The notes: generated by a model from the letters alone, not told the origin. A stretch of 32,034 nt of DNA from Actinomycetota bacterium (GCA_025963875.1 JAOPZY010000159.1:1-32034); one strand, 5' to 3'. Positions 13,103 to 32,034 are shown, counted from the first letter of the stretch. A program made the numbers and translations.

Positions 13103-14368
13103 ATGATCGTGGGGGAGCTCGAAGACTTCGTTCGTGAGGAGTACCGGCGCCGGGAGCAGATCGTCAGTTCCCACTTCGCCACCGAGGCTCCCCGTCTCGC
13201 CCGGGCGTGCCATGCCATGGCCGAGCGGTTCGCCCGCGGGGGTCGCATCCTGGCCTTCGGCATGGGGCCGGCCGCCACCGACGCCTCCCATATCTCCGTG
13301 GAGTTCGTCCACCCGGTCATCGTCGGCAAGCGGGCCCTGCCGGCGATCGCCCTGCCGAACGACGGGCCCACCGCCCTGGGCCTGGCCGCGGAGGACGGGG
13401 CCTCGGTGTTCGCCCGGCAGATCGAGGCCATCGGCGAGCCCGACGACATCGCCATCGGGCTGTCGCTGTCGCCCGACGACCCCTCCGAGCCGGCCGTCGC
13501 GGCGGGCATCAAGCAGGCCGCCGCCAAAGGCATGCAGACGATTGCGCTCACCGGGCCGAGCTCCCATGCCAGGACCTGGGAGGCCGACTGGCTGTTCACC
13601 TGCGAGGACGGGGACCCCTTCGTCGTCCAGGAGGTCCACGAAACGGGCTACCACGTGCTGTGGGAACTGGTGCACGTCTTCTTCGAGCACAAAGGTCTGC
13701 TGAAGGGCAGGACCGCGGGTCACGTCCAGGACTCCGGGGCGTCGGGGTTCCTCTACCCCTTCCTCGCCGAGGCGGAGACCAATCTCGACGAGGTCCTCGC
13801 CGAGATCCAGGGCTCGATCCTCCAGAAGGCGCAGGACGTCATCGACATCCGGGCAGCCGGGGCCAGGGCCGACCCCGGCAACCTGACCGCCGCCGCCAGG
13901 GTGCTCGGGGAGCGCTTCGCCCAGGGCGCCAAGGTCCTCGCATTCGGCAACGGCGGCTCGGCCACCGACGCCCAGGACTTCGTCACCGACCTGATGGCGC
14001 CCCCGCGGGGCCTGCGCCCACGGCCGGCCCTGTCGCTGACCAACGAGGAGGCGGTGATCACCGCGGTCGGCAACGACGTCGGCTTCGACAACGTCTACGC
14101 CCGCCAGGTCATCGCCTTCGGCAAGCCGGGCGACGTCGCGTTCGCCATCTCCACGTCGGGCGGTTCGCGCAATGTGCTCGCCGCCCTGGAGGAGGCCCGC
14201 CGCCGCAAGCTCGTCTGCTTCGGCCTCGCCGGCTACGGCGGGGGGCCGATGGTGACCAGGGGCCTGGTCGACCACTCGATCACCATCGACTTCGAGTACA
14301 TCCCCCGCATCCAGGAGGCTCAGGCCAGCCAGTACCACATCCTCCGGCGACTGGTCGAAATGGTCTAA
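13103..14368 (+). CDS. Tandem SIS-domain (GmhA / phosphoheptose isomerase-like) protein
   Basis: Domain 1: GGRILAFGMG..ATDASHISVEFVHPVIVGKRALPAIAL..HVLWELVHVFFE. Domain 2: FLYPFL..KVLAFGNGGSATDAQD..ITAVGNDVGF..ISTSGGSRNV..PRIQE. ATG 13103 preceded by GGAAGG. Confidence 0.88.
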   Translation: MIVGELEDFVREEYRRREQIVSSHFATEAPRLARACHAMAERFARGGRILAFGMGPAATDASHISVEFVHPVIVGKRALPAIALPNDGPTALGLAAEDGASVFARQIEAIGEPDDIAIGLSLSPDDPSEPAVAAGIKQAAAKGMQTIALTGPSSHARTWEADWLFTCEDGDPFVVQEVHETGYHVLWELVHVFFEHKGLLKGRTAGHVQDSGASGFLYPFLAEAETNLDEVLAEIQGSILQKAQDVIDIRAAGARADPGNLTAAARVLGERFAQGAKVLAFGNGGSATDAQDFVTDLMAPPRGLRPRPALSLTNEEAVITAVGNDVGFDNVYARQVIAFGKPGDVAFAISTSGGSRNVLAALEEARRRKLVCFGLAGYGGGPMVTRGLVDHSITIDFEYIPRIQEAQASQYHILRRLVEMV

Positions 14369-16301: not shown

Positions 16302-17222
16302 ATGGAGCGCTGGCTTGCGACGGCGAGTGGTCAACACGGGCTCATCACGCGGCAACAAATGCGCAATTTGGGGTTTACCGTGCGGGCAATCGAATGGAAG
16401 ATCGAGGTCGCGACCATCGAGGAGATGCTGCCGGGGGTCTACCGGGTCGGCGGCTCTGCCCGGACCTGGGAGCAGCGGGTTAGGGCCGCTTGCCTGTGGG
16501 GCGGCCCGGGTGCGTGCGCCTCCCACAAGTCGGCCGCTGCGCTGTGGCAGTTGGATGGGTTCGGTCCGGGGCCGGTCGAGATCTCCACCCTCAAGCAGAA
16601 CCGGGCGCACCTATCGTTCAAGGTGCATCGGACGCAGGTGGAACCGGCGTTCACTACGAGCAAACTGGGCATTCCCGTCACGAACGCTTTCCGGACGGTG
16701 CGCGATGTGGTCGGCATCGTCAGCGAGGACCGGTCGAACCAAGTGCTCGACGAGGCGCTGCGGAAAGGGTTGGTCTCCATGGACGCCCTCCGGCGGATGG
16801 TGGATCGGGAGAAACGTTCCGGCCGTCGTGGTCTCGGCGTGCTCCGTCGGCTGGTGGAGCAGCGGGAGCCGGGGTACCAGCCGTCGGCCTCCGAGCTCCA
16901 GGCGGCCACCCGCCGGCTGCTCGTCGCGGCCGGCATCGAGTTCGTCGAAGAGTTCGTGGTGACCGACGACAAGGGCAACTTCGTGGCCCGGGTCGATTTC
17001 AAGCTGGTGGGCTCGCCGGTCGTCGTCGAGTCCGACGGGCGGGCGAACCACTCATCCAAGCTCGACTGGCAGCACGACCTGGACCGGCGCAACCTCCTCA
17101 CCGCCCTGGGGCTCGGCGTCATCCACGTCACCTGGGACAAGGTCATGAACCGCCCGGACGAGTTTCTTGCCGAAGTCAGAGACGCCTCTACACGCCGGCC
17201 TTGGCCGCCGCCAACTCCTTGA
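16302..17222 (+). CDS. AbiEi-like N-terminal wHTH plus DUF559 / very-short-patch-repair-like endonuclease domain protein
   Basis: LATASGQHGLITRQQMRNLG..LPGVYRV, ASHKSAAALWQL, GIPVTNAFRTVRD, SASELQ, FVARVDF..VVVESDGRANH..DLDRRNLL..LGVIHVTW. TAGAAT at 16290-16295 is 6 nt before the ATG (leaderless). Confidence 0.85.
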   Translation: MERWLATASGQHGLITRQQMRNLGFTVRAIEWKIEVATIEEMLPGVYRVGGSARTWEQRVRAACLWGGPGACASHKSAAALWQLDGFGPGPVEISTLKQNRAHLSFKVHRTQVEPAFTTSKLGIPVTNAFRTVRDVVGIVSEDRSNQVLDEALRKGLVSMDALRRMVDREKRSGRRGLGVLRRLVEQREPGYQPSASELQAATRRLLVAAGIEFVEEFVVTDDKGNFVARVDFKLVGSPVVVESDGRANHSSKLDWQHDLDRRNLLTALGLGVIHVTWDKVMNRPDEFLAEVRDASTRRPWPPPTP

Positions 17223-18585
17223 CCAGCTCGCCGGTGAACGCCTTGGCGTCCCCGAAGAGCATCATCGTCTTGTCCATGTAGTAGAGGTCGTTGTCGATGC
17301 CGGCGAAGCCGGGGCTCATCGACCGCTTGATGACCATCACCGTCGACGCCTTGTCGACGTCGAGGATGGGCATGCCGTAGATAGGGGAGGTCTTGTCGGT
17401 CTTGGCCGCCGGGTTGGTGACGTCGTTCGCCCCGATGATCACCACGACGTCGGTCTGGGCGAACTCGGGGTTGATCTCGTCCATCTCGATGAGGCGGTCG
17501 TAGGGGATGTCCGCCTCGGCGAGCAGCACGTTCATGTGGCCCGGCATCCGCCCGGCGACGGGATGGATGGCGAATTTCACGTCCACGCCGGCCTTCGTGA
17601 GCGAGTCGTACAGCTCGCGAACTTTGTGCTGGGCCTGGGCGACCGCCATGCCGTAGCCCGGCACGACGACCACACGGGAGGCGACCTCGAGGATGGAGGC
17701 CGCCTCCTCCGCCGAAGCGCTGCGGTAGGGCCGCTGCTCGGTGGCCCCGCCCGCCTGCGCCACCTGGCCGAAGCCACCGAAGAGCACGTTGGTGAACGAT
17801 CGGTTCATGGCCTTGCACATGATGATCGACAGGATCAGGCCCGACGACCCGTCGAGGGCGCCCGCGACGATCAGCAGGGGGTTGTTCAGCACGAAGCCCA
17901 TCGCCGAGGCGGAGAGACCGGCGTAGGAGTTGAGGAGTGAGATAACCGTCGGCATGTCGGCGCCGCCGATCGGGATGATGAGGAGCACCCCAAAGAGCAG
18001 CGACAGCCCGGCTAGGGCGGGGAACAGGACGGTCTTGGTGGGGTCGGCGACGAGGTAGACGCCGATGGCGACGGCAATGGCAAAGAGGGTGAGGTTGACG
18101 GCATTCTGGCCCTTGTAGACCATCGGGCGGCTCGGGAGCAGCTCCTGGAGCTTACCGAACGCCATGAGGCTCCCCGTAAAGGTCAGGTAGCCCAGCAGCA
18201 CCTCCAGGATGAGGGCGACCATCTCGAAGTGGGTGAGGGGGGTGGCGCCGGCCCTCGCGTGCAGGTAGAACTCGGCGGTGCCGACCACCGCCGCTGCGAG
18301 GCCGCCGAAGGAGTGGGACAGGGCGGTCCGCTGGGGGACGTCCTTCATCGGCATGAAGATCGCCAGCGGCAGGCCGATGATGGCCCCGAGGACGAGGCCG
18401 ACGATGATCCAGTTGTAGGTCATGCCCTTGGTGATCAGGGCGCCGAGGATGGCGATCGCCATCCCGATCTCGCCGATGGTCACGCCCCGGCGGGCCGTCG
18501 AGGGCCGGGACAGCCACTTGAGCGCCAGGATGAAGCAGCCCGCAGCGATGATGTAGGTGTACTGCTGGAACGTGACGATGCTCAC
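17188..18585 (-). CDS. pntB: NAD(P) transhydrogenase subunit beta
   Basis: LTFTGSLMAFGKLQ, IGGADMPTVISLLNSYAG, CKAMNRS, VPGYGMAVAQAQH, IHPVAGRMPGHMNVLLAEA, IGANDVTNP, MLFGDAK; GTG 18585 overlaps the upstream stop. Confidence 0.97.
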   Translation of the reverse strand: MSIVTFQQYTYIIAAGCFILALKWLSRPSTARRGVTIGEIGMAIAILGALITKGMTYNWIIVGLVLGAIIGLPLAIFMPMKDVPQRTALSHSFGGLAAAVVGTAEFYLHARAGATPLTHFEMVALILEVLLGYLTFTGSLMAFGKLQELLPSRPMVYKGQNAVNLTLFAIAVAIGVYLVADPTKTVLFPALAGLSLLFGVLLIIPIGGADMPTVISLLNSYAGLSASAMGFVLNNPLLIVAGALDGSSGLILSIIMCKAMNRSFTNVLFGGFGQVAQAGGATEQRPYRSASAEEAASILEVASRVVVVPGYGMAVAQAQHKVRELYDSLTKAGVDVKFAIHPVAGRMPGHMNVLLAEADIPYDRLIEMDEINPEFAQTDVVVIIGANDVTNPAAKTDKTSPIYGMPILDVDKASTVMVIKRSMSPGFAGIDNDLYYMDKTMMLFGDAKAFTGELVKELAAAKAGV

Positions 18586-18905
18586 GCGGCACCCCTCGTT
18601 CCGGCACCCGTCTTGGCCGGCTCCCGCTTTTTGAACATCTTCAGCATGCGGTCGGTAATGACGAAGCCGCCGACGACGTTGGCGAACGAGGCGGTGATGG
18701 CGATGGTCCCAAGCGTCACGGCAAGGTGGTCGTGGTAGTGGGTCCCCGTCAGCTCGATCGATCCGATGAGCGAGATCGCCGAGATGGCGTTGGTGAGCGA
18801 CATCAGCGGCGTGTGCAGCAGCGGGCTCACCCGCTTGATGACCTCGAGCCCGAGGAAGGTGGCCAGCATGAAGATGAGGATGTAGATCGTGAGGTTGTTC
18901 GACAT
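18582..18905 (-). CDS. pntAB: NAD(P) transhydrogenase subunit alpha part 2 (membrane)
   Basis: LHTPLMSLTNAISAI, NVVGGFVITDRMLKMF. Confidence 0.96.
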   Translation of the reverse strand: MSNNLTIYILIFMLATFLGLEVIKRVSPLLHTPLMSLTNAISAISLIGSIELTGTHYHDHLAVTLGTIAITASFANVVGGFVITDRMLKMFKKREPAKTGAGTRGAA

Positions 18906-20159
18906 CTAGGGCACCTTTCCGGTCGTCGCGGCGGCGGGCTGGGCAGGTGCAGCCGGCACCGGCGTGGGGGGAGGCTGCTGGACGGGATCGTCCAGCCCGA
19001 GGGCCTGGCGCACCCTGGCGTTGGTGACCTCGCCGCTGCGCGCGACGAGGCTCTCCCGCACGATCTCGTCCTCGGTGTCGACCTTGAGGATCCGCTCCTT
19101 GCCGTTGTACATGTTCATCAGGAAGGCGGTGAGGTTCTTGGCGTAGGTCATGCTCGCGTGCACCGGGACGGTGGAGGGGAGGTTGGTCGGCCCGTCGATG
19201 GTGACCCCGTTGACGAGGACCTCCTCGTCGGGTTGCGACAGCTCCACGTTGCCGCCCTGCCCGGCCGCCATGTCGACGATCACCGAGCCCGGCGCCATCC
19301 CACGCACCATGTCCGCCGTCACCAGCACCGGGGCCTTCTTGCCCGGGACCTGGGCCGTCGTGATCACGATGTCGCTGGCGGCGACGACCTTCGCCATCAG
19401 CTCCCGCTGGCGGCGGAGGAAGTCCTCGCTCTGCTCCTTGGCATAGCCGCCGGTGCCTTTGGCCTCGGACGTGTCGAGGGGGACCTCGACGAACTTGGCG
19501 CCAAGGCTCTCCACCTGCTCCTTGGTCTCCGGCCGGACGTCGAAGGCCTGGACGACGGCGCCGAGGCGGCGGGCGGTGGCGATGGCCTGCAGCCCGGCGA
19601 CGCCGACGCCGAGCACGAACACCTTGGCCGGCGGGATCGTCCCCGCCGCGGTGGTCATCATCGGCATCATCTTGGGCAGCAGCCGGGCCGCACGGATGAC
19701 CGCCTTGTAGCCGCCGATGTTCGCCTGGGACGAGAGGGCGTCCATGCTCTGGGCCCTCGTGATGCGGGGAACCAGCTCCATGGCGAAGAAGGTGACCTTG
19801 CGCCGGGCAAGTTCGGCGACCCCCTCGGGGTTGGCGAGGGGGTTGGCGAGCCCGATCACGAGCTGGTCCGGCCGGAGCAGGTCGAGGTCGCATTTCCCGG
19901 CATCGGGATTGGCCGGATAGGTGCGGACCTGCAGGACGATGTCCGCCCCGAAGGCGTCGGCCCGGGAGCCGATCTCGGCCCCGTGGTGCGTGTAGGCCTC
20001 GTCCAGGAAACCGGCCTCGGCGCCGGCGCCGCTCTCGACGATGATGCGCAGCCCAACCTTCGTGAATGCCGGGAGGGCGTTCGGCGTCAGTGCTACCCGA
20101 CGCTCGCCCGGGAACGTCTCCCGCGGCACTCCGACCGACAACGAGGCCTCATCCGCCAT
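18906..20159 (-). CDS. pntAA: NAD(P) transhydrogenase subunit alpha part 1 (NAD(H)-binding dI)
   Basis: VGVPRETFPGERRVALTP, PRITRAQSMDALSSQANIGGYKAV, GVGVAGLQAIATARRLGA, GGYAKE, DMAAGQGGNVE. Confidence 0.97.
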   Translation of the reverse strand: MADEASLSVGVPRETFPGERRVALTPNALPAFTKVGLRIIVESGAGAEAGFLDEAYTHHGAEIGSRADAFGADIVLQVRTYPANPDAGKCDLDLLRPDQLVIGLANPLANPEGVAELARRKVTFFAMELVPRITRAQSMDALSSQANIGGYKAVIRAARLLPKMMPMMTTAAGTIPPAKVFVLGVGVAGLQAIATARRLGAVVQAFDVRPETKEQVESLGAKFVEVPLDTSEAKGTGGYAKEQSEDFLRRQRELMAKVVAASDIVITTAQVPGKKAPVLVTADMVRGMAPGSVIVDMAAGQGGNVELSQPDEEVLVNGVTIDGPTNLPSTVPVHASMTYAKNLTAFLMNMYNGKERILKVDTEDEIVRESLVARSGEVTNARVRQALGLDDPVQQPPPTPVPAAPAQPAAATTGKVP

Positions 20160-20255: not shown

Positions 20256-22355
20256 TCATGTTTGAGCACCTGCAGCAACTCGCTGCACCAGGCTGCGAGC
20301 GTGCTCGGCGACGTTGTCCGCCGTAAACCCGAGCTCGGCCATCACCGTCGCCCCCGGCGCCGAGGCGCCGAAGTGGTCGAGGGCCACGGATGCGCCCTCG
20401 TCGCCGATCCAGCGCTCCCAGCCGAAGCTGGCGGCCGACTCGACGGACAGGCGGGCCCGGACGCTGGGCGGGAGGACCTCGTCGCGGTAGCTCTTCGGCT
20501 GGGCCGCGAACAGGTCCCACGAAGGCATGCTGACGACGCGGGCGCGGATGCCCTCCCCGGCGAGGCGCTCCGCGGCCTCGACGGAGATGGAGACCTCCGA
20601 CCCGGTGGCGATGATGATGAGGTCGGGGTCGGGGGAGCCGCCGTTGCTCGCAGGGGGGTCGAACAGGGTGTAGGCGCCCTTGGCGAGCCCTGAGGCCGGG
20701 GCCAGCCGGGTCCGGTCGAGGACCGGGACGTTCTGGCGGGTGAGGACGAGGCCAACTGGACGGTCGTGATGGAGGAGCGCGACCCGCCAGGCCTCAATGG
20801 CCTCGTTGGCGTCGGCGGGCCGGATCAGCATGAGGTTGGGCATGGCCCTGAGGCTCGCCAGGTGCTCGACCGGCTGGTGGGTCGGCCCGTCCTCGCCCTG
20901 CCCGATCGAGTCATGCGACCAGACGAAGATCGTGGGGGCCTTCATGAGGGCCGCCAGCCGGACGGCGGGCCGCATGTAGTCGGAGAAGATCAGGAACGTC
21001 CCGCCGAAGGGCCGGATGCCGCCGTGCAGGGCCATCCCGTTCATGGCCGCGGCCATGCCGTGCTCCCGGACCCCGTAGTGGATGTTGCGGCCGGAGGCGT
21101 CCGCTCCCAGCGCCCCGCCGCCCTTGATCTCGGTCAGGTTCGAGCCCGTCAGGTCCGCCGACCCGCCGATCAGCTCCGGCACCCTGGGGGCGAGGGCGTT
21201 GATGGCCATGTTGGAGGCCGCCCGCGTGGACACCGACTTCTTGTCGACCGGGACCACCGGCAGGTCGGCGTCCCAGCCCTCGGGCAGTTTGCCGGAGAGC
21301 ACGCGCTCGAACTCGGCGGCCAGCTCCGGGTATTCCGCCTTGTAACGGCTGAACAGGTAGTTCCATGTCGCCTCGGCCTCGGCCCCCCGGGGGCCGGCCT
21401 GCCGCCAGTTCGCCAGGGCCTCGTCCGGGACGAAGAAGTGCTTGTCCGGGTCCCAGCCGAGGCGGATCTTCGTCCCGCGGACCTCCTCCTCGCCAAGGGC
21501 CTGCCCGTGGGCGAGCTCGCTGTCCTGGCGGGTGGGGGCGCCGTAGCCGATGTGGGTCCGCAGCACGATCAGCGACGGGCGCGGGTCGCCCTGGGCGGCC
21601 TCGATGGCTTCCGTGATCTTGCCGAGCTCGTTGCCGTCGGGGACGTGCTGGACGTGCCACTGGTACGCCTCGAACCGCTTCCCCACGTCCTCGGTGAAGG
21701 CGAGCTCGGTCGAGCCGTCGATCGAGATCTGGTTGGCGTCGTAGAGGTAGATCAGCTTGCCGAGGCGGAGGTGGCCGGCGAGCGATGCCGACTCGTGGGA
21801 GACGCCCTCCATGACGTCGCCGTCGGAGCAGATGGCGTAGGTGTGGTGGTTGACGACCGCGAAGCCGGGCTTGTTGAAGCGGGCGGCGAGCTCCCGCTCG
21901 GCGATCGCCATGCCGACGCCGGTGGCGAAGCCCTGCCCGAGGGGCCCGGTCGTGGTTTCGACACCAACGGTGTGGCCGTACTCGGGGTGGCCCGGGGTCA
22001 ACGACCCCCACTGCCGGAACTGCTGGAGGTCCTCGATGGTCAGCCCGTAGCCCGTCAGGAACAGCAGGGAGTAGAGGAGCATCGAGGCGTGGCCCGCCGA
22101 GAGCACGAAGCGGTCCCGGTCGGGCCAGTGAGGGTTGGCGGGGTTGTGCTTGAGGAAGCGGTGCCAGAGGACGTACGCCGCGGGGGCGAGGCCCATCGGA
22201 GCCCCCGGGTGGCCCGAGTTCGCCTTCTGCACGGCATCGGCGGCAAGCGTGCGGATCGTGTTGATGGAGAGGAGATCGAGGTCGTTGCCGTAGCTCGGCG
22301 GGGAGACGATCTTCTCGAGGGTGCTCGTGGTGTCTGGGCTCATAGTGGGGCTCAC
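20256..22355 (-). CDS. tkt: Transketolase
   Basis: [72 protein letters not shown]. Start GTG 22355 (coupled to the rpe stop) or ATG 22343. Confidence 0.97.
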
Positions 22356-23068
22356 TTTCCTCCGGCGATAGCGCTGATCGGGCTCCCCGCCTCGACCTCG
22401 ATGGCCTCGGCAAGGTTGGCGCGGCACTGTGCCACGCCGGCGGCGACCCCACCCGGATCACGGAACAGCGCGGAGCCGACGACGAAGGTGTCGGCCCCCG
22501 CAGCCGCGGCAGCGCCGATGGTCGAGGGGGAGATGCCGCCATCGACCTCCAGGGGGATATCCCGGCCGGTGGCGTCGATCATCTTCCGCGCCTCGGCGAT
22601 CTTGGGTTCCATCTCGGCGATGTAGGCCTGGCCCCCGAACCCGGGGTTGACCGTCATCACCAGAAGGTGATCGATGGAGCCCAGGACGTGGCGGATCGCC
22701 TCGAGCGGCGTGTGGGGGTTGAGGGCGACGCCGGCCTTCGCCCCCAGGCGGCGGATCTCCTGCAGGGTGCGGTGCAGGTGGACGCTGACCTCGGGGTGCA
22801 CGATGACGGTCTCGCAGCCGGCCTCGACGTACTGGTCGATCCACCGCTCCGGCTCCTCGATCATGAGGTGTGCCTCGTAGGGGACCGCCGTGGCGCCCCG
22901 GCAGGCCTTGATGAACTCGGGACCGAAGGTGAGGTTGGGCACGAAGTGCCCGTCCATCACGTCCCACTGGATGGCATCGACGCCCGCGGCGTCGAGCCGG
23001 GCGACCTCGTCGAAGAGCCGGCCGGGGTCGGCGTTCAGGACGGACGGCACGATCCAGGGCGTTCTCAC
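22352..23068 (-). CDS. rpe: Ribulose-phosphate 3-epimerase
   Basis: [51 protein letters not shown] 23068 overlaps the tal stop. Confidence 0.96.
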
Positions 23069-23733
23069 TTGGCGGCGGTCGCTTCCTGCAGGTGCTGCCA
23101 GTCCGCCATGAACTGCTCCAGGCCCTTGTCGGTGAGCGGGTGCTGGACGAGCATCTTGAACACCTTGAAGGGCATCGTCGCGATGTCGGCCCCCACCCGG
23201 GCGGCGTCCATGACGTGCACCGGGTGACGCAGGGAGGCCGCCAGCACCTTCGTCGTGTACTCCTGGACGCGGAAGATCTCGCAGATCTCTGCCACGAGGG
23301 CCAGGCCGTCCCACGAGATGTCGTCGAGACGGCCGGCGAAGGGGCTGCAGCACCAGGCCCCCGCCTTGGCGGAGAGGATCGCCTGGTTCGGCGAGAAGAT
23401 CAGCGTCATGTTCACCTTGATGCCTTCGCGGGAGAGGCGGTGGGTCGCCGCCAGGCCCGCAGGGGTGCACGGGCACTTGACGAGGACGTTGGGGGCCCAG
23501 GAGTGGTAGACGAGGCCCTCCTTGTACATGCCGTCGGCGTCGGTGGAGACGCACTCCATCGACACGGGGCCGTCGATGATGGAGCTGATCTTCTTGATGG
23601 CGACCTCGGGATTGGCGTGGCCGGCCTTGGAGATGAGGGTGGGGTTCGTCGTGACGCTGCCGAGCACCCCCCAACTCGCGGCCTCTTCTATCTCCGAGAT
23701 CTCTGCGGTGTCGAGAGACAGAATCATGTCCAT
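23065..23733 (-). CDS. tal: Transaldolase, small (TalC/FSA-like fold) type
   Basis: LDTA, VTTNPTL, GPVSME (Glu), NVLVK (Schiff-base Lys), NMTLIFS, SPFAGRLDD (Phe), LAASLRH, HPLTDKGL. Glu+Phe is the transaldolase rather than FSA (Gln+Tyr) signature. Start 23733 or 23727. Confidence 0.9.
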   Translation of the reverse strand: MDMILSLDTAEISEIEEAASWGVLGSVTTNPTLISKAGHANPEVAIKKISSIIDGPVSMECVSTDADGMYKEGLVYHSWAPNVLVKCPCTPAGLAATHRLSREGIKVNMTLIFSPNQAILSAKAGAWCCSPFAGRLDDISWDGLALVAEICEIFRVQEYTTKVLAASLRHPVHVMDAARVGADIATMPFKVFKMLVQHPLTDKGLEQFMADWQHLQEATAAK

Positions 23734-23854
23734 TTTTCTCACCCTTTACGGAAATTGACCTCGCGTGGCAAGGTTGGCCGTGGCGTTAACGCTATTCCCG
23801 GGGGCCGGCGTCATGCCATTCCCCGGCGGAACCAGACTGGGGTGGGAGGCGGCC

Positions 23855-24012
23855 TCACCCCCTCAGGTGACGGCCGGAGAGCCTCCGCGCCGCATCCGTC
23901 CCCCCTCCGCCGCCGGCGGGGCCCGCAGGCGGCTCGAACGCCGGAGATCCCGAAGCACCGTCCCGGCAAAAGTTGCTAGTCTTCATATCGTCTCGTCACC
24001 CCCATAGGTGAC
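23855..24012. promoter_or_regulatory. Two copies of a TCACC-N6-GGTGA palindromic box in the tal/prk divergent promoter region
   Basis: TCACCCCCTCAGGTGAC 23855-23871 and TCACCCCCATAGGTGAC 23996-24012 (15/17 identical). Confidence 0.55.
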
Positions 24013-24105
24013 CTGCATCTCCTTGGCACGATACCCATGACGGGGGATTGTCTCCTCTGGATAAGACCCTACCCTGGTAGTTGACACCTAGCTCGGGAGC
24101 GACGG

Positions 24106-25089
24106 ATGGCCATGAGCCCACTTGGGCTGCGCAACAAAGGGGGCATCGGCTCCACGCGTGCCCGCCGCCCCATCATGCTCGGCGTGGTCGGGGACTCGGC
24201 CGCCGGCAAGACAACGCTCACCCGCGGGATCGAGAACATCTTCGGTCAGGACCGGGTGAACTCGATCTGCACCGACGACTACCACCGCTACGACCGTGAG
24301 GCGCGCAAGAAGGTCCAGCTCACGCCGCTGAACCCCGAGTGCAACTACATGGACATCATGGAGCAGCACCTCGCACTCATGGCGATGGGGGAGCCGATCC
24401 TGAAGCCCGTCTACAACCACAACCACGGCACCCTCGACGCCCCAGAGGTGTTCGAGCCCGCCGACTACGTCGTCATCGAGGGCCTGCTCGGCTTCTGGAC
24501 CAAGGGGATGCGGGACTGCTTCGACGTCAAGGTCTTCCTCGACCCCCCCGAGGACCTGCGCCGCGCCTGGAAGATCAAGCGCGACTGCACGAAGCGCAAC
24601 TACACCCCGGACGAGGTCATCGCCGACATGCAGAAGCGCGAGCCCGACTCCAAGGAGTTCATCGAGCCCCAGCGGGAGTACGCCGACATCGTCGTGCGGT
24701 TCATCCCCCCGGGTGGCAACCTCGACAGCGACCCCACCAAGTACAACGTGCGCCTCGTGCTGCGGCCGACCCTCCCGCATCCGTATCTCGCGGAGATCGC
24801 CGCCGAGACCCGCACCCCGCGTTACGAGCCCATCCGGTTCCACCTCGCCCGTGACCGGGGCAAGCCGGTCGACGTCCTGGAGATCGACGGCCAGGTCCCG
24901 CCGGAGGTCTCCGCGGCCGCCGAGGAGATCATCTGGGACAAGATGGCGCACCCCGACGGCGAGCTCAACCGGGAGGCGATCGGCGTGTTCGTCGACGCCA
25001 ACCAGGAGAGGCGCTCGGAGAGCCTGGCCCTCACCCAGCTCCTGATCGTCTTCCAGCTCGTCGGCGCCGCCTCCGCCGCCGCCCGCTAG
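24106..25089 (+). CDS. prk: Phosphoribulokinase (class II, cyanobacterial/plant-like)
   Basis: GVVGDSAAGKTT P-loop, ICTDDYHRYDR, KPVYNH, IEGL, WKIKRD, FIEPQREYADIVV; adjacent to cbbR-cbbLSX. Confidence 0.93.
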   Translation: MAMSPLGLRNKGGIGSTRARRPIMLGVVGDSAAGKTTLTRGIENIFGQDRVNSICTDDYHRYDREARKKVQLTPLNPECNYMDIMEQHLALMAMGEPILKPVYNHNHGTLDAPEVFEPADYVVIEGLLGFWTKGMRDCFDVKVFLDPPEDLRRAWKIKRDCTKRNYTPDEVIADMQKREPDSKEFIEPQREYADIVVRFIPPGGNLDSDPTKYNVRLVLRPTLPHPYLAEIAAETRTPRYEPIRFHLARDRGKPVDVLEIDGQVPPEVSAAAEEIIWDKMAHPDGELNREAIGVFVDANQERRSESLALTQLLIVFQLVGAASAAAR

Positions 25090-25097
25090 AACGCAAG

Positions 25098-25133
25098 TCC
25101 CAGGCCGGGGGCACCTCCCAGGCCGGGGGCACC
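25098..25133. repeat. Perfect 18-bp tandem duplication between convergent prk and cbbR
   Basis: TCCCAGGCCGGGGGCACC at 25098-25115 and 25116-25133. Confidence 0.9.
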
Positions 25134-25135
25134 CC

Positions 25136-26071
25136 CTACACGGGCGCCGGTCGCGCGCCGGCTCCCCCCAACCAGGCGCCCACGGCGGTCCGTGCCTCCT
25201 GGGAGCTCAGCAGGTCGAGGAACTGGATGCAGCTGCCGCTGAGCGGGTCGGCCTCCAGGTAGAGCACGTACCATTTCCGCCGCAGCGGCGTGCCGGCGAC
25301 CCGGAGCCGGCAGAGTGCCCCGCTCGCCAGCTCCGCCGCGACCGCGTGCGCCGAGATCAGCGCCACCCCCAGGCCGGCGGCGGCGGCCTGCTTCACGGCG
25401 CCGTTGCTCCCGAGCGTCATCGCCGAGCCGACCTGGAACCCGTTCTGCGCCCAGAACTCCTGGGTGGTCTCCCTCGTGCCCGAGCCCGGTTCGCGCACCA
25501 GCCAGGTTTCGGCCGCCAGGAGGGCCGGGTCGACGGACTCCTCTTCGCCGTAGGCGTGGTCGTGGGGCGCGACGACGATCAGCTCGTTGTCGAGGAAGGG
25601 GACGCCGCGGATGCCGCGGCCCTCCGGGGGGCGTCCGCCGAAGCCGAGGTCGGCCTCCCGGGCGGTGATCCGGTCCACGACCGTCGCGCGGTTGCCGACC
25701 TCCATCCTGAGCTGGACGTCGCGGTGGGCCTCCCGGAAGACTTTGAGGATGGGCGGCAGGACGTACTCGCCTGCCGTGGTGACCGCCACGAGGTTGAGCG
25801 GCGCCGCCTGCCCCGCCGCCTCGCGGGTCCGGCGTACCGCCTGCTCGGTGAGGCCGAGGATCTGGGCCGCATACCGGGCCAGCTCGGTCCCCGCCGCTGT
25901 GAGCCGGATGCCGCGTCCGTCACGTTCGACCAGGGCAACCTGCAATTCGTCGCGCAGGGCGGCGAGCGCCGCCGACACCGAGGGCTCGGTGATCAGCAGC
26001 GATGCGGCGGCCCCGCGGACGGAGCCCTGCCTCGCCACTTCGAGGAACGTCTTGAGCTGGGAAAAGGTCAT
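25136..26071 (-). CDS. cbbR: LysR-type regulator CbbR
   Basis: MTFSQLKTFLEVARQGSVRGAA..EPSVSA HTH, LTAAG, VTTAGEYVLP, REPGSGTR, LGSNGAVKQAAAAGLG; divergent from cbbL. Confidence 0.92.
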   Translation of the reverse strand: MTFSQLKTFLEVARQGSVRGAAASLLITEPSVSAALAALRDELQVALVERDGRGIRLTAAGTELARYAAQILGLTEQAVRRTREAAGQAAPLNLVAVTTAGEYVLPPILKVFREAHRDVQLRMEVGNRATVVDRITAREADLGFGGRPPEGRGIRGVPFLDNELIVVAPHDHAYGEEESVDPALLAAETWLVREPGSGTRETTQEFWAQNGFQVGSAMTLGSNGAVKQAAAAGLGVALISAHAVAAELASGALCRLRVAGTPLRRKWYVLYLEADPLSGSCIQFLDLLSSQEARTAVGAWLGGAGARPAPV

Positions 26072-26110
26072 CGGGCTGCCTAGGGGATCCTCGAATCGCT
26101 CGATTACGAC

Positions 26111-26177
26111 TTAGAGCTAGGTCTAATGAATTCAGCAGAAAATTAAATTGTAATCTTGCCGTGGACATGCCTATCAT
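26111..26177 (+). promoter_or_regulatory. cbbL promoter with probable CbbR site
   Basis: AT-rich island; inverted repeat TTAGA-N6-TCTAA 26111-26126; -35 TTGTAA 26148-26153, 18-nt spacer, -10 TATCAT 26172-26177. Confidence 0.6.
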
Positions 26178-26179
26178 GA

Positions 26180-27715
<1,536 letters not shown>

Positions 27716-27747
27716 GGCCCACCGAGAACGAGACAAGGAGTTTCCAC

Positions 27748-28197
27748 ATGCATGTGACGCAGGGCACGTTCAGCTACCTGCCCGCTCTCTCGGACGACGA
27801 GATCCGGGCGCAGATCCAGTACGGCATCGACCAGGGCTGGGCGGTGGCCATCGAGTTCACCGACGACATCCACCCCCGCAACGTCTACTGGGAGATGTGG
27901 GGCTTCCCGGACTTCGACGCCAAGGACTCCGCGGCCGGCCTCTTCGAAGTCAACCGCTGCCGCGAGGCGTACCCGAACCAGTACATCCGGGTGACGCTGT
28001 ACAACCCGAAGCTGACCAAGCAGACGATCGGCCTCCAGTTCATCGTCAACCGGCCCGGCAACGAGCCCGGGTACCGGCTGGACCGCCAGGAGTCCAACGA
28101 CCGGGTCATCCGCTACACCCTCGTGCCGTACGCCAACGAGAAGCCCCACGGCGACCGGTACGCCGAGGGTGCCTATGGCGACTACCACGGGAACTAG
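27748..28197 (+). CDS. cbbS: RuBisCO small subunit (red-type)
   Basis: MHVTQGTFSYLPALSDDEI, IEFTDDIHPRNVYWEMWG, FIVNRPGNEPGYRLDRQE..RVIRYTL red-type C-terminal hairpin; AAGGAG RBS before ATG 27748. Confidence 0.97.
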   Translation: MHVTQGTFSYLPALSDDEIRAQIQYGIDQGWAVAIEFTDDIHPRNVYWEMWGFPDFDAKDSAAGLFEVNRCREAYPNQYIRVTLYNPKLTKQTIGLQFIVNRPGNEPGYRLDRQESNDRVIRYTLVPYANEKPHGDRYAEGAYGDYHGN

Positions 28198-28215
28198 GCC
28201 ACAGATGGGTAGGTG

Positions 28216-28243
28216 ACGGCGGGGGGCCCTGGCCCCCCGCCGT
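28216..28243 (+). terminator. Strong hairpin between cbbS and cbbX (partial terminator / mRNA stabiliser)
   Basis: ACGGCGGGGGGCC-CT-GGCCCCCCGCCGT perfect 13-bp inverted repeat. Confidence 0.7.
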
Positions 28244-28281
28244 TCCAACTACGGACAACGACACCACAGGAGTGAACAGCG

Positions 28282-29442
28282 ATGGACGAATCGACCAACG
28301 AGGCCCCGGCCCCCGAGGTGCCTGTCCGCATGGCGACCAAGGGCCTGGGCTGGTCCGGAAGAGAGACGGCCGACGAGGTCGACGGGGCGGCGGCCCCGCC
28401 CACCCCGACGCTCAAGCCAGCGACGAAGAAGCCCCCGGCTCCGCCCATGGGCCCGGGCATGGTGCGCCCCGAGGTCGAGCGCTTCGGCGAGACGGAGACC
28501 GACTCGGTGTTCGACCTGGCCGGCATCAACGACCCGCTGGCCGAGATCCCCGACGACCTCGTCGTCGACGCCGGCAAGCTGTTCAACGACACGCGGATCT
28601 TCGACGTCCTCGACGCCCTCGACCGTGAGCTGGTCGCTCTCGACGTCGTCAAGCGCCGGGTCCGGGAGGTCGCCTCGCTGCTGCTGATCGACCGGCTGCG
28701 GCGCACCCTGAACCTCGAGTCCGAGCAGCCCACCCTGCACATGTCCTTCACCGGCAATCCCGGCACGGGCAAGACGACGGTGGCCATGAAGATGGGCCAG
28801 ATCCTGTGGAAGCTCGGGTTCGTCCGGAAGGGTCATATCGTGGTGGCCAGCCGCGACGACCTCGTCGGCCAGTACGTCGGCCACACCGCCCCCAAGACCC
28901 GGGAGGTCCTGAAACGGGCGATGGGCGGCGTGCTGTTCATCGACGAGGCCTACAACATGTACCGCGTCGACAACGAGCGGGACTACGGCCAGGAGACGGT
29001 CGAGATGCTCCTCCAGGTCATGGAGAACGACCGCCAGGACATCGTCGTGATCATGGCCGGCTACGAGAAGCAGATGAACCGCTTCTTCGCCGATGTGCCC
29101 GGCATCTCCTCCCGAATCGCTCACCACCTGACGTTCCCCGACTACGAGGTTCCCGAACTGATGGCCATCGCCCGGCTGATGCTGGCGACGCAGCGCTACC
29201 GCTTCGCTCCGGACGCCGAAAAGGCGTTCGAGGAGTACATCACCCTGCGCAAGGGCCAGGACAACTTCGCCAACGGCCGCAGCGTCCGCAACGCCCTGGA
29301 GCGCCTGCGGATGCGCCAGGCGATCCGGCTGTTCGACGCAGCGAACCGGGGTCGCAAGCTCACGAAGGGCGACCTGGTGACGATCGAGGCCGAGGACGTC
29401 CTCCAGAGCCGGGTGTTCGAGGGCGGCGTCTTCGACAACTGA
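28282..29442 (+). CDS. cbbX: CbbX AAA+ RuBisCO activase with N-terminal extension
   Basis: LHMSFTGNPGTGKTTVA, RDDLVGQYVGHTAPKT, GGVLFIDEAY, ERDYGQE, LLQVMEN, FANGRSVRNALER; follows cbbS. Confidence 0.96.
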   Translation: MDESTNEAPAPEVPVRMATKGLGWSGRETADEVDGAAAPPTPTLKPATKKPPAPPMGPGMVRPEVERFGETETDSVFDLAGINDPLAEIPDDLVVDAGKLFNDTRIFDVLDALDRELVALDVVKRRVREVASLLLIDRLRRTLNLESEQPTLHMSFTGNPGTGKTTVAMKMGQILWKLGFVRKGHIVVASRDDLVGQYVGHTAPKTREVLKRAMGGVLFIDEAYNMYRVDNERDYGQETVEMLLQVMENDRQDIVVIMAGYEKQMNRFFADVPGISSRIAHHLTFPDYEVPELMAIARLMLATQRYRFAPDAEKAFEEYITLRKGQDNFANGRSVRNALERLRMRQAIRLFDAANRGRKLTKGDLVTIEAEDVLQSRVFEGGVFDN

Positions 29443-29623: not shown

Positions 29624-31651
29624 GTGCACATTCCGGACGGTTATCTCAGCCCTGTCACCTGCGCGGCCCTCTACGCTGCGGACCTGCCCGTGTGGGCGGT
29701 CGCCGCCAAGCGGGTCAACAGGGTCGTCAAGACCCGGGACGTGCCGCTGCTCGCCGTCGGCGCCGCCTTCTGCTTCCTGACCATGATGTTCAACGTCCCC
29801 GTCCCCGGCGGGACCACGGCCCATGCCGTCGGCGCCGTCCTCGTGGCGATCCTGCTGGGTCCCTCGGCGGCGATCATCGCGGTGTCGGCGGCGCTGGCCG
29901 TCCAGGCCCTCTTCTTCGGCGACGGGGGGATCCTCGCCCTCGGGGCCAACGTCTTCAACATGGCGGTCGTCATGACGCTCGCCGGCTATGGCATCTACCG
30001 GCTCCTCGCCCGCGGCAGCGGCCTGGCGTCGCCCCGGCGGGCGCTGGCGGCGGGCATCGGGGCCTACGCCGGCCTCAACGCCGCGGCCCTGTGCGCCGCC
30101 GTCGAGCTCGGCCTGCAGCCGGCGCTCTTCCACGCCGCCGACGGCACCCCCCTCTACGCCCCGTTCCACCTCTCACAGGCGCTGCCACCGGTGATGCTGG
30201 CCCACCTCACCGTCGCCGGCGGGGTCGAGCTGGCGATGACGCTCGGCATTGTCGCCTACCTCCAGCGGGCGAACCTGCCGCTGCTGGCAGGCAGCCACCC
30301 CCGGCTGCGGGAGCCGGAACCGGGGCAGGCGCCGCGGCGGCGAACGGGCTGGCGCTGGGGGTTGGCAGCCCTCGGGGCGATGGCGGTGCTGACGCCGCTC
30401 GGCCTGCTCGCAAGCGGGGGAGCGTTCGGCGAGGCGAAGCCGGGGCAACTGGACCTGGCCAGGTACCACCTCAAGGCCGTCCCGGCTGGCCTGCGGCACT
30501 ACGCCGGCGTCTGGCACCACGCTCTTCTCGACGGCTACGGCTTCGCCGGAGGCAGCCACCCCGTGATCGGCTACCTGGTGTCGGCGGCGGCCGGCGCCGG
30601 CGCGATCGCCGCCGTCTTCCTCGCCGTGTTCGCCTTCCGTCGCTGGATGCCCCGGCCGGTCGCGCCGGCGGAGACAGCGGGGCGCCCGCCGGTGTCCTCG
30701 CGGGCCGGGGCCGTCCCGGCGTGGTTGCTGGCTCCGCAGGTCGACCTCGCCCCCGGCGCACACGCCGGCGGCCGGAGGGGCGGGGGAAGGAGGGCCAGCT
30801 TCGTGGACAAGACGCTCAACGGGGCGGCCGCGGTGATGCGCCAGGCGATCTTTGCCGAGGACACCTCGCAGGGCGGCGGCCTACTGCAACGGATCGACGC
30901 CCGGATCAAGGTCGTCTCCGTCGTCGCCCTCCTCGTCGCCGCCGGGCTGGTGCGCCACATCCCGGTCCTGCTCGTGCTCTACGCGGGTGCCCTGGCCCTG
31001 GCCGCTGCCTCCCGCATACCGCTGGGATTCTTCGTCCGGCGCGTGTGGCTGTTCATCCCGATCTTCACCGGCATCGTCGTACTGCCGGCCACGCTGTCGA
31101 TCGTCACGCCGGGCCACATCCAGGTCCACCTGGGGCACTGGTGGTTCGGTCATGAGGTGGGGATCACGAGCCAGGGACTGCTCGCTGGGGGGCTGATCGT
31201 CACCAGGGTGGCGGTCTCGATCTCGCTGGTCGTCCTCCTGACCCTGACCACGCCCTGGAGCAAGTTGCTGGCCGCGCTGCGGGCGCTGTTCGTGCCCCGG
31301 ATCTTCGTCGTTGTCCTCGGGATGTGCTACCGCTACATCTTCCACCTGCTGAACGCCGTCACCGACATGTACACGGCCCGCAAGGCGAGGGGCGGAGGGA
31401 GAAGGGGAGGCCGCCAGCGCAGGGACGTCGCCGCCGGCCGGTCGCTGGTGGCGGCGTCGGCCGGCGCTCTCTTCGGCAAGGCCAGCGCCTTGTCGGAGGA
31501 GGTCCACATGGCGATGACGTCCCGCGGCTACACGGGCAACATCGCGAACCTGGGCCAGCGCCGCCTGCACGCGATCGATCTCGCGTGGGGGCTGACCTGC
31601 GTCGCCGTTGCCGTCGCTGCCCTGGGAGGTGATCGTGTTCTCGGACGCTGA
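29624..31651 (+). CDS. nikM: ECF nickel/cobalt transporter, fused NikM/CbiM + NikN-like + NikQ/CbiQ
   Basis: N-terminal MHIPDGYL, MFNVPVPGGTTAH, QALFFGDGGILALGANVFNM; middle LTPLGLLA..AFGE..LLDGYGF..GYLVSA; C-terminal LLQRIDARIK, TTPWSKLLAALRAL.VP, YRYIF, ARKAR, MAMTSRGY, all in one 675-aa frame. Confidence 0.9.
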   Translation: MHIPDGYLSPVTCAALYAADLPVWAVAAKRVNRVVKTRDVPLLAVGAAFCFLTMMFNVPVPGGTTAHAVGAVLVAILLGPSAAIIAVSAALAVQALFFGDGGILALGANVFNMAVVMTLAGYGIYRLLARGSGLASPRRALAAGIGAYAGLNAAALCAAVELGLQPALFHAADGTPLYAPFHLSQALPPVMLAHLTVAGGVELAMTLGIVAYLQRANLPLLAGSHPRLREPEPGQAPRRRTGWRWGLAALGAMAVLTPLGLLASGGAFGEAKPGQLDLARYHLKAVPAGLRHYAGVWHHALLDGYGFAGGSHPVIGYLVSAAAGAGAIAAVFLAVFAFRRWMPRPVAPAETAGRPPVSSRAGAVPAWLLAPQVDLAPGAHAGGRRGGGRRASFVDKTLNGAAAVMRQAIFAEDTSQGGGLLQRIDARIKVVSVVALLVAAGLVRHIPVLLVLYAGALALAAASRIPLGFFVRRVWLFIPIFTGIVVLPATLSIVTPGHIQVHLGHWWFGHEVGITSQGLLAGGLIVTRVAVSISLVVLLTLTTPWSKLLAALRALFVPRIFVVVLGMCYRYIFHLLNAVTDMYTARKARGGGRRGGRQRRDVAAGRSLVAASAGALFGKASALSEEVHMAMTSRGYTGNIANLGQRRLHAIDLAWGLTCVAVAVAALGGDRVLGR

Positions 31652-32034
31652 CGGCTGCCTGCTCGAGCTCGACGGGGTGTCCTACTCGTACCTCCGGCGG
31701 TTCCCGGCCCTCGACCGGGTGTCCCTCGGCATACGGGCGGGCGAGAAGGTGGCCCTTCTCGGCGCCAACGGCTGCGGAAAGTCCACGCTCCTGAAGCTGC
31801 TCGACGGCTTGATCTTCCCCGATGCCGGCAGCTACACGGCGTTCGGGACCGAGGTCACCGACGACGCCCTGGAGGAGGAGCAGTTCAACGGCTCCTTCCG
31901 CTCCCGGGTGGGCTTCATCTTCCAGAACTCCGACGCCCAGGTCTTCTCGCCGACGGTGAGGGAGGAGATCGCCTTCGGGCCGCTCAACCTCGCGATGGCG
32001 GCCGAGGAGGTCGAGGAGCGGGTGGCGGACACCC
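31635..32034 (+). CDS. nikO: ECF transporter ATPase NikO/CbiO (truncated by window end)
   Basis: GTG 31635 after GGAGGT; MFSDADGCLLELDGVSYSY..GEKVALLGANGCGKSTLL..RVGFIFQNSDAQVFSPTVREEIAFGPLNL. Not in the ORF track because it has no stop in the window. Confidence 0.92.
   Translation, partial: MFSDADGCLLELDGVSYSYLRRFPALDRVSLGIRAGEKVALLGANGCGKSTLLKLLDGLIFPDAGSYTAFGTEVTDDALEEEQFNGSFRSRVGFIFQNSDAQVFSPTVREEIAFGPLNLAMAAEEVEERVADT

Follow-up and report, generated by a model that had tools for sequence, protein, structure and literature searches.

The Calvin-cycle variant that employs a transaldolase is reportedly to be credited to Frolov et al. (2019, PNAS). In Thermodesulfobium acidiphilum, RuBisCO (the carboxylase/oxygenase of ribulose-1,5-bisphosphate) and phosphoribulokinase are accompanied by a transaldolase that has been proposed as the source of sedoheptulose-7-phosphate (S7P), replacing sedoheptulose-1,7-bisphosphate (SBP) aldolase and SBP phosphatase (SBPase), and a passage of PMC13374853 summarises this variant as operating without SBPase. 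The same source, in a passage on Ktedonobacteria, reports an inferred transaldolase variant with a form I ('IG') RuBisCO, and genome-based claims of a transaldolase route appear in parts of the reports on Thiobacillus thioparus (PMC5248467) and, reportedly, in that on Thermithiobacillus tepidarius (PMC5037610). Here we describe a Calvin-cycle (cbb) gene cluster in which a transaldolase gene, tal, heads an array with the genes for ribulose-phosphate 3-epimerase (rpe) and transketolase (tkt), close to genes for a RuBisCO assigned to form IE. It lies in a stretch of 32,034 nucleotides from an Actinomycetota bacterium (GCA_025963875.1, JAOPZY010000159.1:1-32034), which we call the window. We regard the cluster as a transaldolase module dedicated to the cbb genes, and a route through it that needs no SBPase is plausible. 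The original prediction for this DNA cited the variant as described with form III RuBisCO; a restriction to that form is outdated by the form I cases inferred in the passages of PMC13374853 and PMC5248467; the combination of form I RuBisCO and transaldolase has already been proposed in print, and the most interesting element here is a cbb-specific clade of transaldolases (Tal) with the motif K-C-P-C-T.

The locus differs from each of the systems that it resembles. Whereas T. acidiphilum is an anaerobic thermoacidophile with a form III enzyme, the window comes from a soil actinobacterium with a red-type, form IE RuBisCO and the activase CbbX, whose genome keeps the phosphatase GlpX and a class I aldolase and whose system is known from genes alone. 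Ktedonobacteria are alike in having a form I RuBisCO with CbbR and CbbX, and the Tal route has been read from genomes there too; for them and for T. thioparus, however, the inference as given in the cited passages combines a missing SBPase or GlpX with any tal in the genome, whereas here GlpX is present, and tal is itself one of the cluster's genes and falls in a clade specific to cbb. Form IE clusters of a Mycobacterium intracellulare plasmid (NZ_CP012886.2, L124) and of metagenome-assembled genomes (MAGs) of Acidimicrobiia (L009, L011, L029) share the CbbL clade, the order cbbL-cbbS-cbbX, rpe-tkt and prk, but they have a class I aldolase gene beside cbbL, a GAF kinase/LuxR regulator pair and no tal, while in the window's genome the aldolase gene is on another contig and tal heads rpe-tkt. 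The form IC cluster on S. meliloti pSymB (L125; cbbR <> cbbF-cbbP-cbbT-cbbA-cbbL-cbbS-cbbX-cbbE, where <> marks divergence) likewise has a divergent LysR regulator, and its red-type RuBisCO is accompanied by CbbX and by clustered prk, tkt and rpe, but it encodes a class I fructose-1,6-bisphosphate (FBP) phosphatase (FBPase) and a class II aldolase (the SBP route), and no tal. Our literature searches, supplements aside, turned up no account of a tal gene within an actinobacterial or form IE cbb cluster, nor of a Tal clade specific to cbb.

The window, with about 70% G+C, is the entire 32-kb contig C263 of an assembly (G000) of 3.84 Mb in 273 contigs that is rated 94.6% complete. Genes were called by Pfam and NCBIfam profile searches, in which 43 open reading frames (ORFs) of the window were scanned; these recovered every gene named in the original prediction and give the order pntAB-tkt-rpe-tal divergent from prk, then cbbR and cbbL-cbbS-cbbX. 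On the minus strand, tal (23065..23733; ORF 23065-23742) encodes a short transaldolase of about 222 residues (PF00923/TAL_FSA, E 1e-54), rpe (22352..23068; within ORF 22352-23674) a match to PF00834, and tkt (20256..22355; ORF 20256-22427) a protein with four Tkt Pfam domains. The phosphoribulokinase gene prk, whose true start may be a later codon, is on the plus strand (24106..25089; PF00485 and 396 bits to the NCBIfam phosphoribulokinase profile). The tal stop and rpe start overlap in AAGTGAG (GTG 23068-23066, TGA 23067-23065), and the rpe stop and tkt start in GTGA (22355-22352, with the GTG at 22355 in the tkt frame), so that both GTGA overlaps by which tal-rpe-tkt had been predicted to be translationally coupled are present.

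The window Tal contains the motifs SLD, SME (Glu), VKCP (Lys), NMTLIFS and SPFAGR (Phe), and inspection of the sequence finds all four residues expected of a true transaldolase (Asp, Glu, Lys and Phe), including the Glu and Phe that had been singled out. The presence of Glu rather than Gln and Phe rather than Tyr presumably separates short transaldolases from fructose-6-phosphate aldolase (FSA). The closest PDB entries are transaldolases, namely Thermus thermophilus 1WX0, T. maritima 1VPX and B. subtilis 3R8R (E 1e-61 to 1e-68), and the match to E. coli FSA is far weaker (E ~1e-28) than those to the solved transaldolases. By residues and matches, the protein is predicted to be a true transaldolase and not an FSA. 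It is similar to these three and to T. acidophilum 3S0C, all short transaldolases of subfamily 4, in its length (~220 residues) and its catalytic Asp/Glu/Lys/Phe (E 1e-58 to 1e-68), but differs at the Schiff-base lysine, where the common K-[IVL]-P-x-T gives way to K-C-P-C-T.

This motif at the catalytic lysine defines a lineage, being found in 5/5 members of the cbb-linked clade and in 0/41 other short Tal rows of the alignment. The five actinobacterial cbb-linked Tals, from the window genome, the two other genomes of its genus (G001 and G002), contig C56 of a genome of another class (G095) and a relative of the latter (L279), form one clade, supported at 96/96 for four members in a tree of 44 rows and by an SH-aLRT value of 96 for all five in a tree of 45 rows, one of which (G030) is flagged as unpublished. 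Its sister group consists of 21 housekeeping actinobacterial short Tals, which track taxonomy and include the second Tal of G095. All members of the clade are cbb-linked, in two distant actinobacterial lineages, and by its place in the trees the window tal is best regarded as a member of a cbb-dedicated lineage and not as a stray housekeeping gene. Residues and PDB matches indicate a true transaldolase, and the position of tal-rpe-tkt beside prk and the cbb-specific clade tie it genetically to the cbb genes. The Cys-Pro-Cys beside the catalytic lysine may be a redox or metal site. VKCPC is encoded at 23470-23484 of the window, with counterparts within L155:4614-5279 and L279:10001-10663, and the Tal of the window's genus has an additional Cys-Cys pair ahead of the SPF motif.

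The RuBisCO genes are all on the plus strand and comprise cbbL (26258..27715), cbbS (27748..28197, PF00101; within ORF 27361-28197, start placed at 27748) and cbbX (28282..29442; AAA and AAA_lid_6 domains), the complete form I red-type set of large subunit, small subunit and activase; with prk, both RuBisCO and phosphoribulokinase are thus encoded in the window. CbbX has an N-terminal extension of about 100 residues before its match to TIGR02880 (residues 101-379), and its score against NCBIfam cbbX_cfxQ is 442.7 bits, slightly below the cut-off of 459. The best named match of CbbL is the M. intracellulare plasmid enzyme, at 75.9% identity; identity to rhizobial and Burkholderiales form IC enzymes is 63-72%. 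In a tree of 31 rows, CbbL falls into a 100/100 clade with the M. intracellulare plasmid, Dormibacterota/Chloroflexota and Acidimicrobiia, separate from 17 proteobacterial and Methylomirabilota rows that include form IC of S. meliloti pSymB. Passages of PMC12999727 and PMC13454268 label the Mycobacterium/Actinomycetota clade as form IE. Judged by this phylogeny, the window RuBisCO is form IE, of the actinobacterial clade and apart from IC, as had been predicted, the form being assigned via a clade-mate in a tree without a green-type (IA, IB) or ID outgroup and not from a full reference tree.

Relatives of the window genome suggest how tal came into the island. The copies of this Tal at 87-90% identity among genomes are only those of the genus's two other genomes. 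Six metagenome contigs encode a Tal that is 89-99% identical, and in 6/6 rpe adjoins tal with the AAGTGAG junction; four of these contigs extend to prk and three to cbbLSX. In the same family but another genus, G005 has the island without tal (cbiMNQ-cbbX-cbbS-cbbL <> cbbR, prk <> rpe-tkt-pntA-pntB), and G007 (a genome flagged as unpublished) has rpe <> prk and no tal. The divergent control region between tal and prk (23734..24105), delimited from alignments and motif positions, contains two blocks conserved in G000, G001 and G002, one at 23846-23873 and the other, at 23995-24012, an inverted repeat GTCACC-N6-GGTGAC; in its spacer between rpe and prk, G005 has blocks that resemble these without being identical. 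Because a tal-less island has similar blocks upstream of rpe, tal appears to have been inserted behind a pre-existing control region. A second genomic copy of GTCACC-N6-GGTGAC, on contig C75 beside cupredoxin and YceI genes, was taken as chance, about 0.4 copies being expected by our own estimate. Rfam searches gave no match in the whole window or in the tal-prk spacer.

Beyond the family, G095 has the arrangement cbbR <> cbbL-cbbS-cbbX-GAF kinase-LuxR regulator-tal-rpe-tkt, and in its relative L279 the layout matches the window, with prk <> tal-rpe-tkt; the order tal-rpe-tkt with cbb genes is therefore common to both actinobacterial lineages. G095 encodes a housekeeping short Tal in addition to the cbb-linked one, and G001 has three Tals, namely a long actinobacterial-type Tal (a lone gene), one in a polysaccharide cluster and the cbb-linked one. 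In the order of G095, RuBisCO was found in 2/61 genomes and Tal in 57/61; RuBisCO being rare and Tal common there, the island with its own tal seems to have been acquired on top of a resident Tal. This rarity, together with the extra Tal in G001 and G095, argues that tal travelled with the island. On a MAG contig of a bacterium with 46.6% GC (L306:1455-6626), the order is cbbX-cbbS-cbbL <> LysR-GerE fusion regulator-prk-tal, and the short Tal is unrelated to the actinobacterial cbb-linked clade in the 45-row tree; coming from another region of the tree, it points to an independent second recruitment of tal beside prk. As an observation on other form IE clusters, that of a Chloroflexia bacterium (L013) has a His_Phos_1 gene (histidine-phosphatase superfamily, 8162-8881) adjoining cbbR, and the Dormibacterota/Chloroflexota loci L014, L025, L032 and L033 have the same gap at this position; the L013 gene could encode a non-canonical sugar-bisphosphatase.

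The absence of an aldolase and of FBPase/SBPase, from which the original prediction had argued, holds for the window and fails for the genome. Of the 43 ORFs scanned in the window, none has an fba, fbp/glpX, gap or pgk domain (no search was made for rpi), and tblastn queries with the FBP aldolase (FBA), GlpX and phosphofructokinase (PFK) of G000 itself, and with glyceraldehyde-3-phosphate dehydrogenase and phosphoglycerate kinase, matched only contigs other than the window. The genome has a single class I FBP aldolase (contig C273; 509 bits to NF033379) and a single GlpX (contig C208; TIGR00330, 361 bits), both unlinked to the cbb cluster, a single PFK (contig C106), gap-pgk on C170 and another gap gene on C109; searches of the assembly for class II aldolase and for class I, class III and archaeal-type FBPase found none. 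C273 and C208 thus encode candidates for the FBP/SBP aldolase and the FBPase/SBPase of a canonical cycle. Moreover, the transaldolase variant also needs FBP aldolase and FBPase, and their absence from the cluster is therefore uninformative. Nor is the mere presence of any of these genes informative, since among 41 relatives GlpX (37/41), class I aldolase (38/41) and a Tal family match (38/41) are near-universal. The PFK of C106 contains GGEDT and PKTMDND, and NCBIfam places it only in a mixed PFK subfamily. We take these motifs to mark the pyrophosphate (PPi)-dependent type (Asp104/Lys124, E. coli numbering).

Additional sugar-phosphate genes were considered. A second TAL_FSA gene (C114:13356-14021) was rejected as a housekeeping Tal on account of its UDP-sugar/glycosyltransferase neighbours, its motifs NATCCMS and SLFYGR and a score below the NCBIfam cut-off, all sequence features, and a split transketolase-like pair lies within a glycosyltransferase cluster at C189:2295-4462; these two loci probably make an unusual sugar, outside the pentose-phosphate pathway. 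The cbb-linked Tal appears to be the sole pentose-phosphate-type Tal of G000. Among relatives, the RuBisCO-positive genomes G017, G011, G012 and G022 (family f2, genus g10) have two GlpX paralogues, one in each subclade of a GlpX tree, and RuBisCO-negative relatives have one; the extra copy of the former may be a Calvin-cycle F/SBPase. An apparent lack of any Tal in RuBisCO-positive f2 relatives, seen in a protein-query search, was dropped after a Pfam search found long-type Tals, many of them in ~900-residue frames.

Altogether, these results are consistent with a model in which the locus is an island of Calvin-cycle genes belonging to an uncultured soil actinobacterium whose RuBisCO is of form IE. 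Its ancestral layout would be cbiMNQ-cbbX-cbbS-cbbL <> cbbR, prk <> rpe-tkt-pntAB, persisting in the same-family relative, and the window's genus would have gained a specialised short tal at the head of rpe-tkt, downstream of the control region and translationally coupled to rpe. The Tal most likely catalyses fructose-6-phosphate (F6P) + erythrose-4-phosphate (E4P) <-> S7P + glyceraldehyde-3-phosphate (GAP), as judged from its residues, and flux in the forward direction would yield S7P without SBP aldolase or SBPase. Co-transcribed with the cell's only tkt and rpe, tal would hence also serve the ordinary pentose-phosphate pathway, and in G000 it seems to have taken the place of the long housekeeping Tal. 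With the textbook enzymes retained (the aldolase of class I, GlpX and a PFK bearing PPi-type residues), we read Tal as a parallel or preferred route and not as a demonstrated replacement. The route would not be ATP-sparing, as had been supposed: by our own stoichiometry, five triose phosphates yield three pentose phosphates and two inorganic phosphates in either case, the latter released by FBPase and SBPase in the textbook route and by FBPase acting twice in the Tal route, and neither saves ATP.

We estimate the probability that Tal is a working part of the Calvin-cycle module, offering such an SBPase-independent, parallel or preferred route, at about 0.5, and several observations weigh against it. 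The island of G005 is identical but for tal. Outside the genus, tal of this clade occurs with cbb genes in G095 and L279, but tal next to cbbL is rare: it lies beside cbbL in 1/29 CbbL-anchored loci of named genomes (the one being of the same genus, and several of the loci being short contigs), and in 1/32 actinobacterial cbbL neighbourhoods (G095), 11/32 of which contain FBP aldolase, GlpX or class I FBPase. These 32 comprise 29 from a draw of 401 Actinomycetota genomes, 34 of which encode CbbL, plus G011, G013 and G017, and two rows (G009 and G035) are flagged as unpublished. Class I FBA, GlpX and PFK are retained in G000 and likewise in G001 and G002; the G000 aldolase is 62-64% identical to cbbL-adjacent class I aldolases of Acidimicrobiia, Burkholderiales and Methylomirabilota, and such an aldolase gene adjoins cbbL on the Mycobacterium plasmid. 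In the 26-row GlpX tree (rows G007 and G030 flagged as unpublished, and the kin not independent), the G000 GlpX groups with f1, f3 and the extra 'a' copies of the RuBisCO-positive g10 genomes, while the GlpX of RuBisCO-negative relatives is confined to the other subclade. In tblastn searches of G000, rpe gave a single match and tkt no second full-length copy, the split pair on C189 apart, so that the operon is not autotrophy-specific. Finally, no long Tal was found in the G000 assembly, where synteny with G001 ends just before that gene, and the cbb-linked Tal must then do housekeeping work.

Several of these points, namely the single-copy tkt and rpe, the FBA and GlpX kept in all three genomes of the genus, the tal-less island of G005 and the housekeeping duty left by the missing long Tal, would equally fit a non-oxidative pentose-phosphate operon that merely chances to lie beside prk, with a Calvin cycle run by class I aldolase and a bifunctional GlpX and a Tal of heterotrophic use only. 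The same explanation would fit the Tal family match in 38/41 relatives irrespective of RuBisCO, and a genome-wide survey that, in the part bearing on this enzyme, ranks transaldolase poorly for association with the Calvin cycle (PMC7895386). It leaves unexplained, however, a Tal lineage with its own motif that is confined to cbb clusters in two distant lineages, the extra Tal beside a housekeeping Tal in G001 and G095, and the move with the RuBisCO island into a RuBisCO-poor order; moreover, among the 80 nearest genome Tals, only one, of the same genus, lies near cbb genes, and 0/79 others have CbbL, CbbS, CbbX or Prk in the fetched flanks. We therefore regard a purely housekeeping role as possible but on balance doubtful. 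At the other extreme is the strict cycle of the original prediction, as reported for T. acidiphilum, in which the SBP route is missing or plays no part, GlpX works purely as an FBPase and Tal supplies all of the S7P. What stands of that prediction is a likely true Tal, operonic with rpe-tkt, of a cbb-specific clade and present as an extra paralogue in G001 and G095, and these points favour the strict cycle as much as the parallel route; in addition, the G095 assembly (94% complete) contains neither GlpX nor class I FBPase, with GlpX found in 53/61 genomes of its order. However, 8/61 genomes of that order have no GlpX match, so that the absence in G095 is a hint only and maybe an assembly dropout, and the strict cycle needs FBPase too, which makes this lack point to a missing gene or to a PPi-dependent PFK. 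An SBPase activity of GlpX is not readable from sequence, the G000 GlpX groups with copies found alongside RuBisCO in relatives, other form IE clusters contain class I aldolases of this kind, and the textbook enzymes and single-copy tkt and rpe of G000 speak against exclusivity, making the strict cycle quite improbable. Tal is reversible and might also be used in reverse to remove S7P (S7P + GAP -> F6P + E4P), so that GlpX as SBPase and Tal together bypass FBP and FBPase, or Tal might merely buffer sugar-phosphate pools; one GlpX and one aldolase would suffice, and such a variant is described theoretically in a section of PMC8927339, but nothing specific to the G000 genome speaks for it, F6P is needed for gluconeogenesis, and the GlpX family is annotated as FBPase, making this use very improbable.

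In our reading, tal would be co-regulated with cbbLS. The LysR-type regulator gene cbbR (25136..26071, minus strand; HTH_1 and LysR_substrate domains) is divergent from cbbL, and by alignment the spacer between them contains the inverted repeat TTAGA-N6-TCTAA (26111..26126), which is exact in G000 and G001, has an altered left arm in G002, G004 and G005, and occurs once in the 3.84-Mb genome; we consider it a candidate CbbR binding site. Given the different repeats in the two spacers, the divergent tal-prk and cbbR-cbbL promoters may answer to different regulators. Soil DNA runs covering more than half of the stretch number 14, and six RNA libraries have small shares. Contigs from an RNA library, with 0-7 letter differences, cover tkt, the rpe/tkt junction, the tal 5' end, the tal-prk spacer, prk, cbbL and cbbS, and are a faint hint at joint expression of the operon and cbbLS in situ; the library is from the same study as the probable source sample, DNA carry-over is possible, and the contigs give no level or growth condition. 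RNA depths of X15, X16 and X18 were rejected as evidence of expression, being mixtures of 92-99% relatives that cannot rank genes.

Following tkt on the minus strand are pntA (18906..20159; AlaDh_PNT_N and AlaDh_PNT_C domains) and pntB (17188..18590, upper boundary approximate; PF02233 at residues 444-892 of ORF 17188-19893), encoding the alpha and beta subunits of NAD(P) transhydrogenase. The same position and operon direction of pntAB are found at 17188-20159 of the window, L123:3178-6192, in G005 and on the metagenome contigs L201, L202 and L204, and this suggests that NADPH supply is wired to the Calvin-cycle module. Next to cbbX, in the same order as in G005, is a Ni/Co-type transporter of the energy-coupling factor (ECF) type, with cbiM/(N)/Q and the start of cbiO (29624..32033, plus strand; CbiM, CbiQ and ABC_tran domains), though no [NiFe]-hydrogenase large subunit was found in the G000 assembly. 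The CoxL-like gene next to the G000 aldolase scores below the carbon monoxide dehydrogenase (CODH) cut-off. Upstream of the cluster, at 13750-14368, lies an ORF with a SIS_2 (GmhA-like) domain and without an NCBIfam match; a SIS-domain gene is likewise among the hyp genes beside the mycobacterial form IE cluster.

Bacteria with form IE RuBisCO are candidates for dark CO2 fixation in soils, and their mode of RuBP (ribulose-1,5-bisphosphate) regeneration bears on when a genome should count as having a 'complete' Calvin cycle. A missing SBPase annotation is all that many pipelines, and several papers, require to call the transaldolase variant; the evidence here differs in kind, being a paralogous Tal clade that is found only inside cbb clusters and moves with them. 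For biochemistry, the Tal, the GlpX and the class I aldolase offer a concrete target at low cost, and K-C-P-C-T is a sequence marker for metagenome surveys. If the Tal route is only a parallel one, the locus would still illustrate neatly how an operon grows when a gene is inserted and the older paralogue is then lost. It is tempting to speculate that the Tal lineage with Cys-Pro-Cys, perhaps a switch responding to redox state or metal, is among the transferable components of actinobacterial form IE islands and makes RuBP regeneration independent of SBP aldolase and SBPase, although we consider this bolder view unlikely. If true, the transaldolase variant would be the main route in widespread aerobic soil bacteria, and it would have arisen at least three times, in the window lineage, in the low-GC L306 lineage and in Thermodesulfobium.

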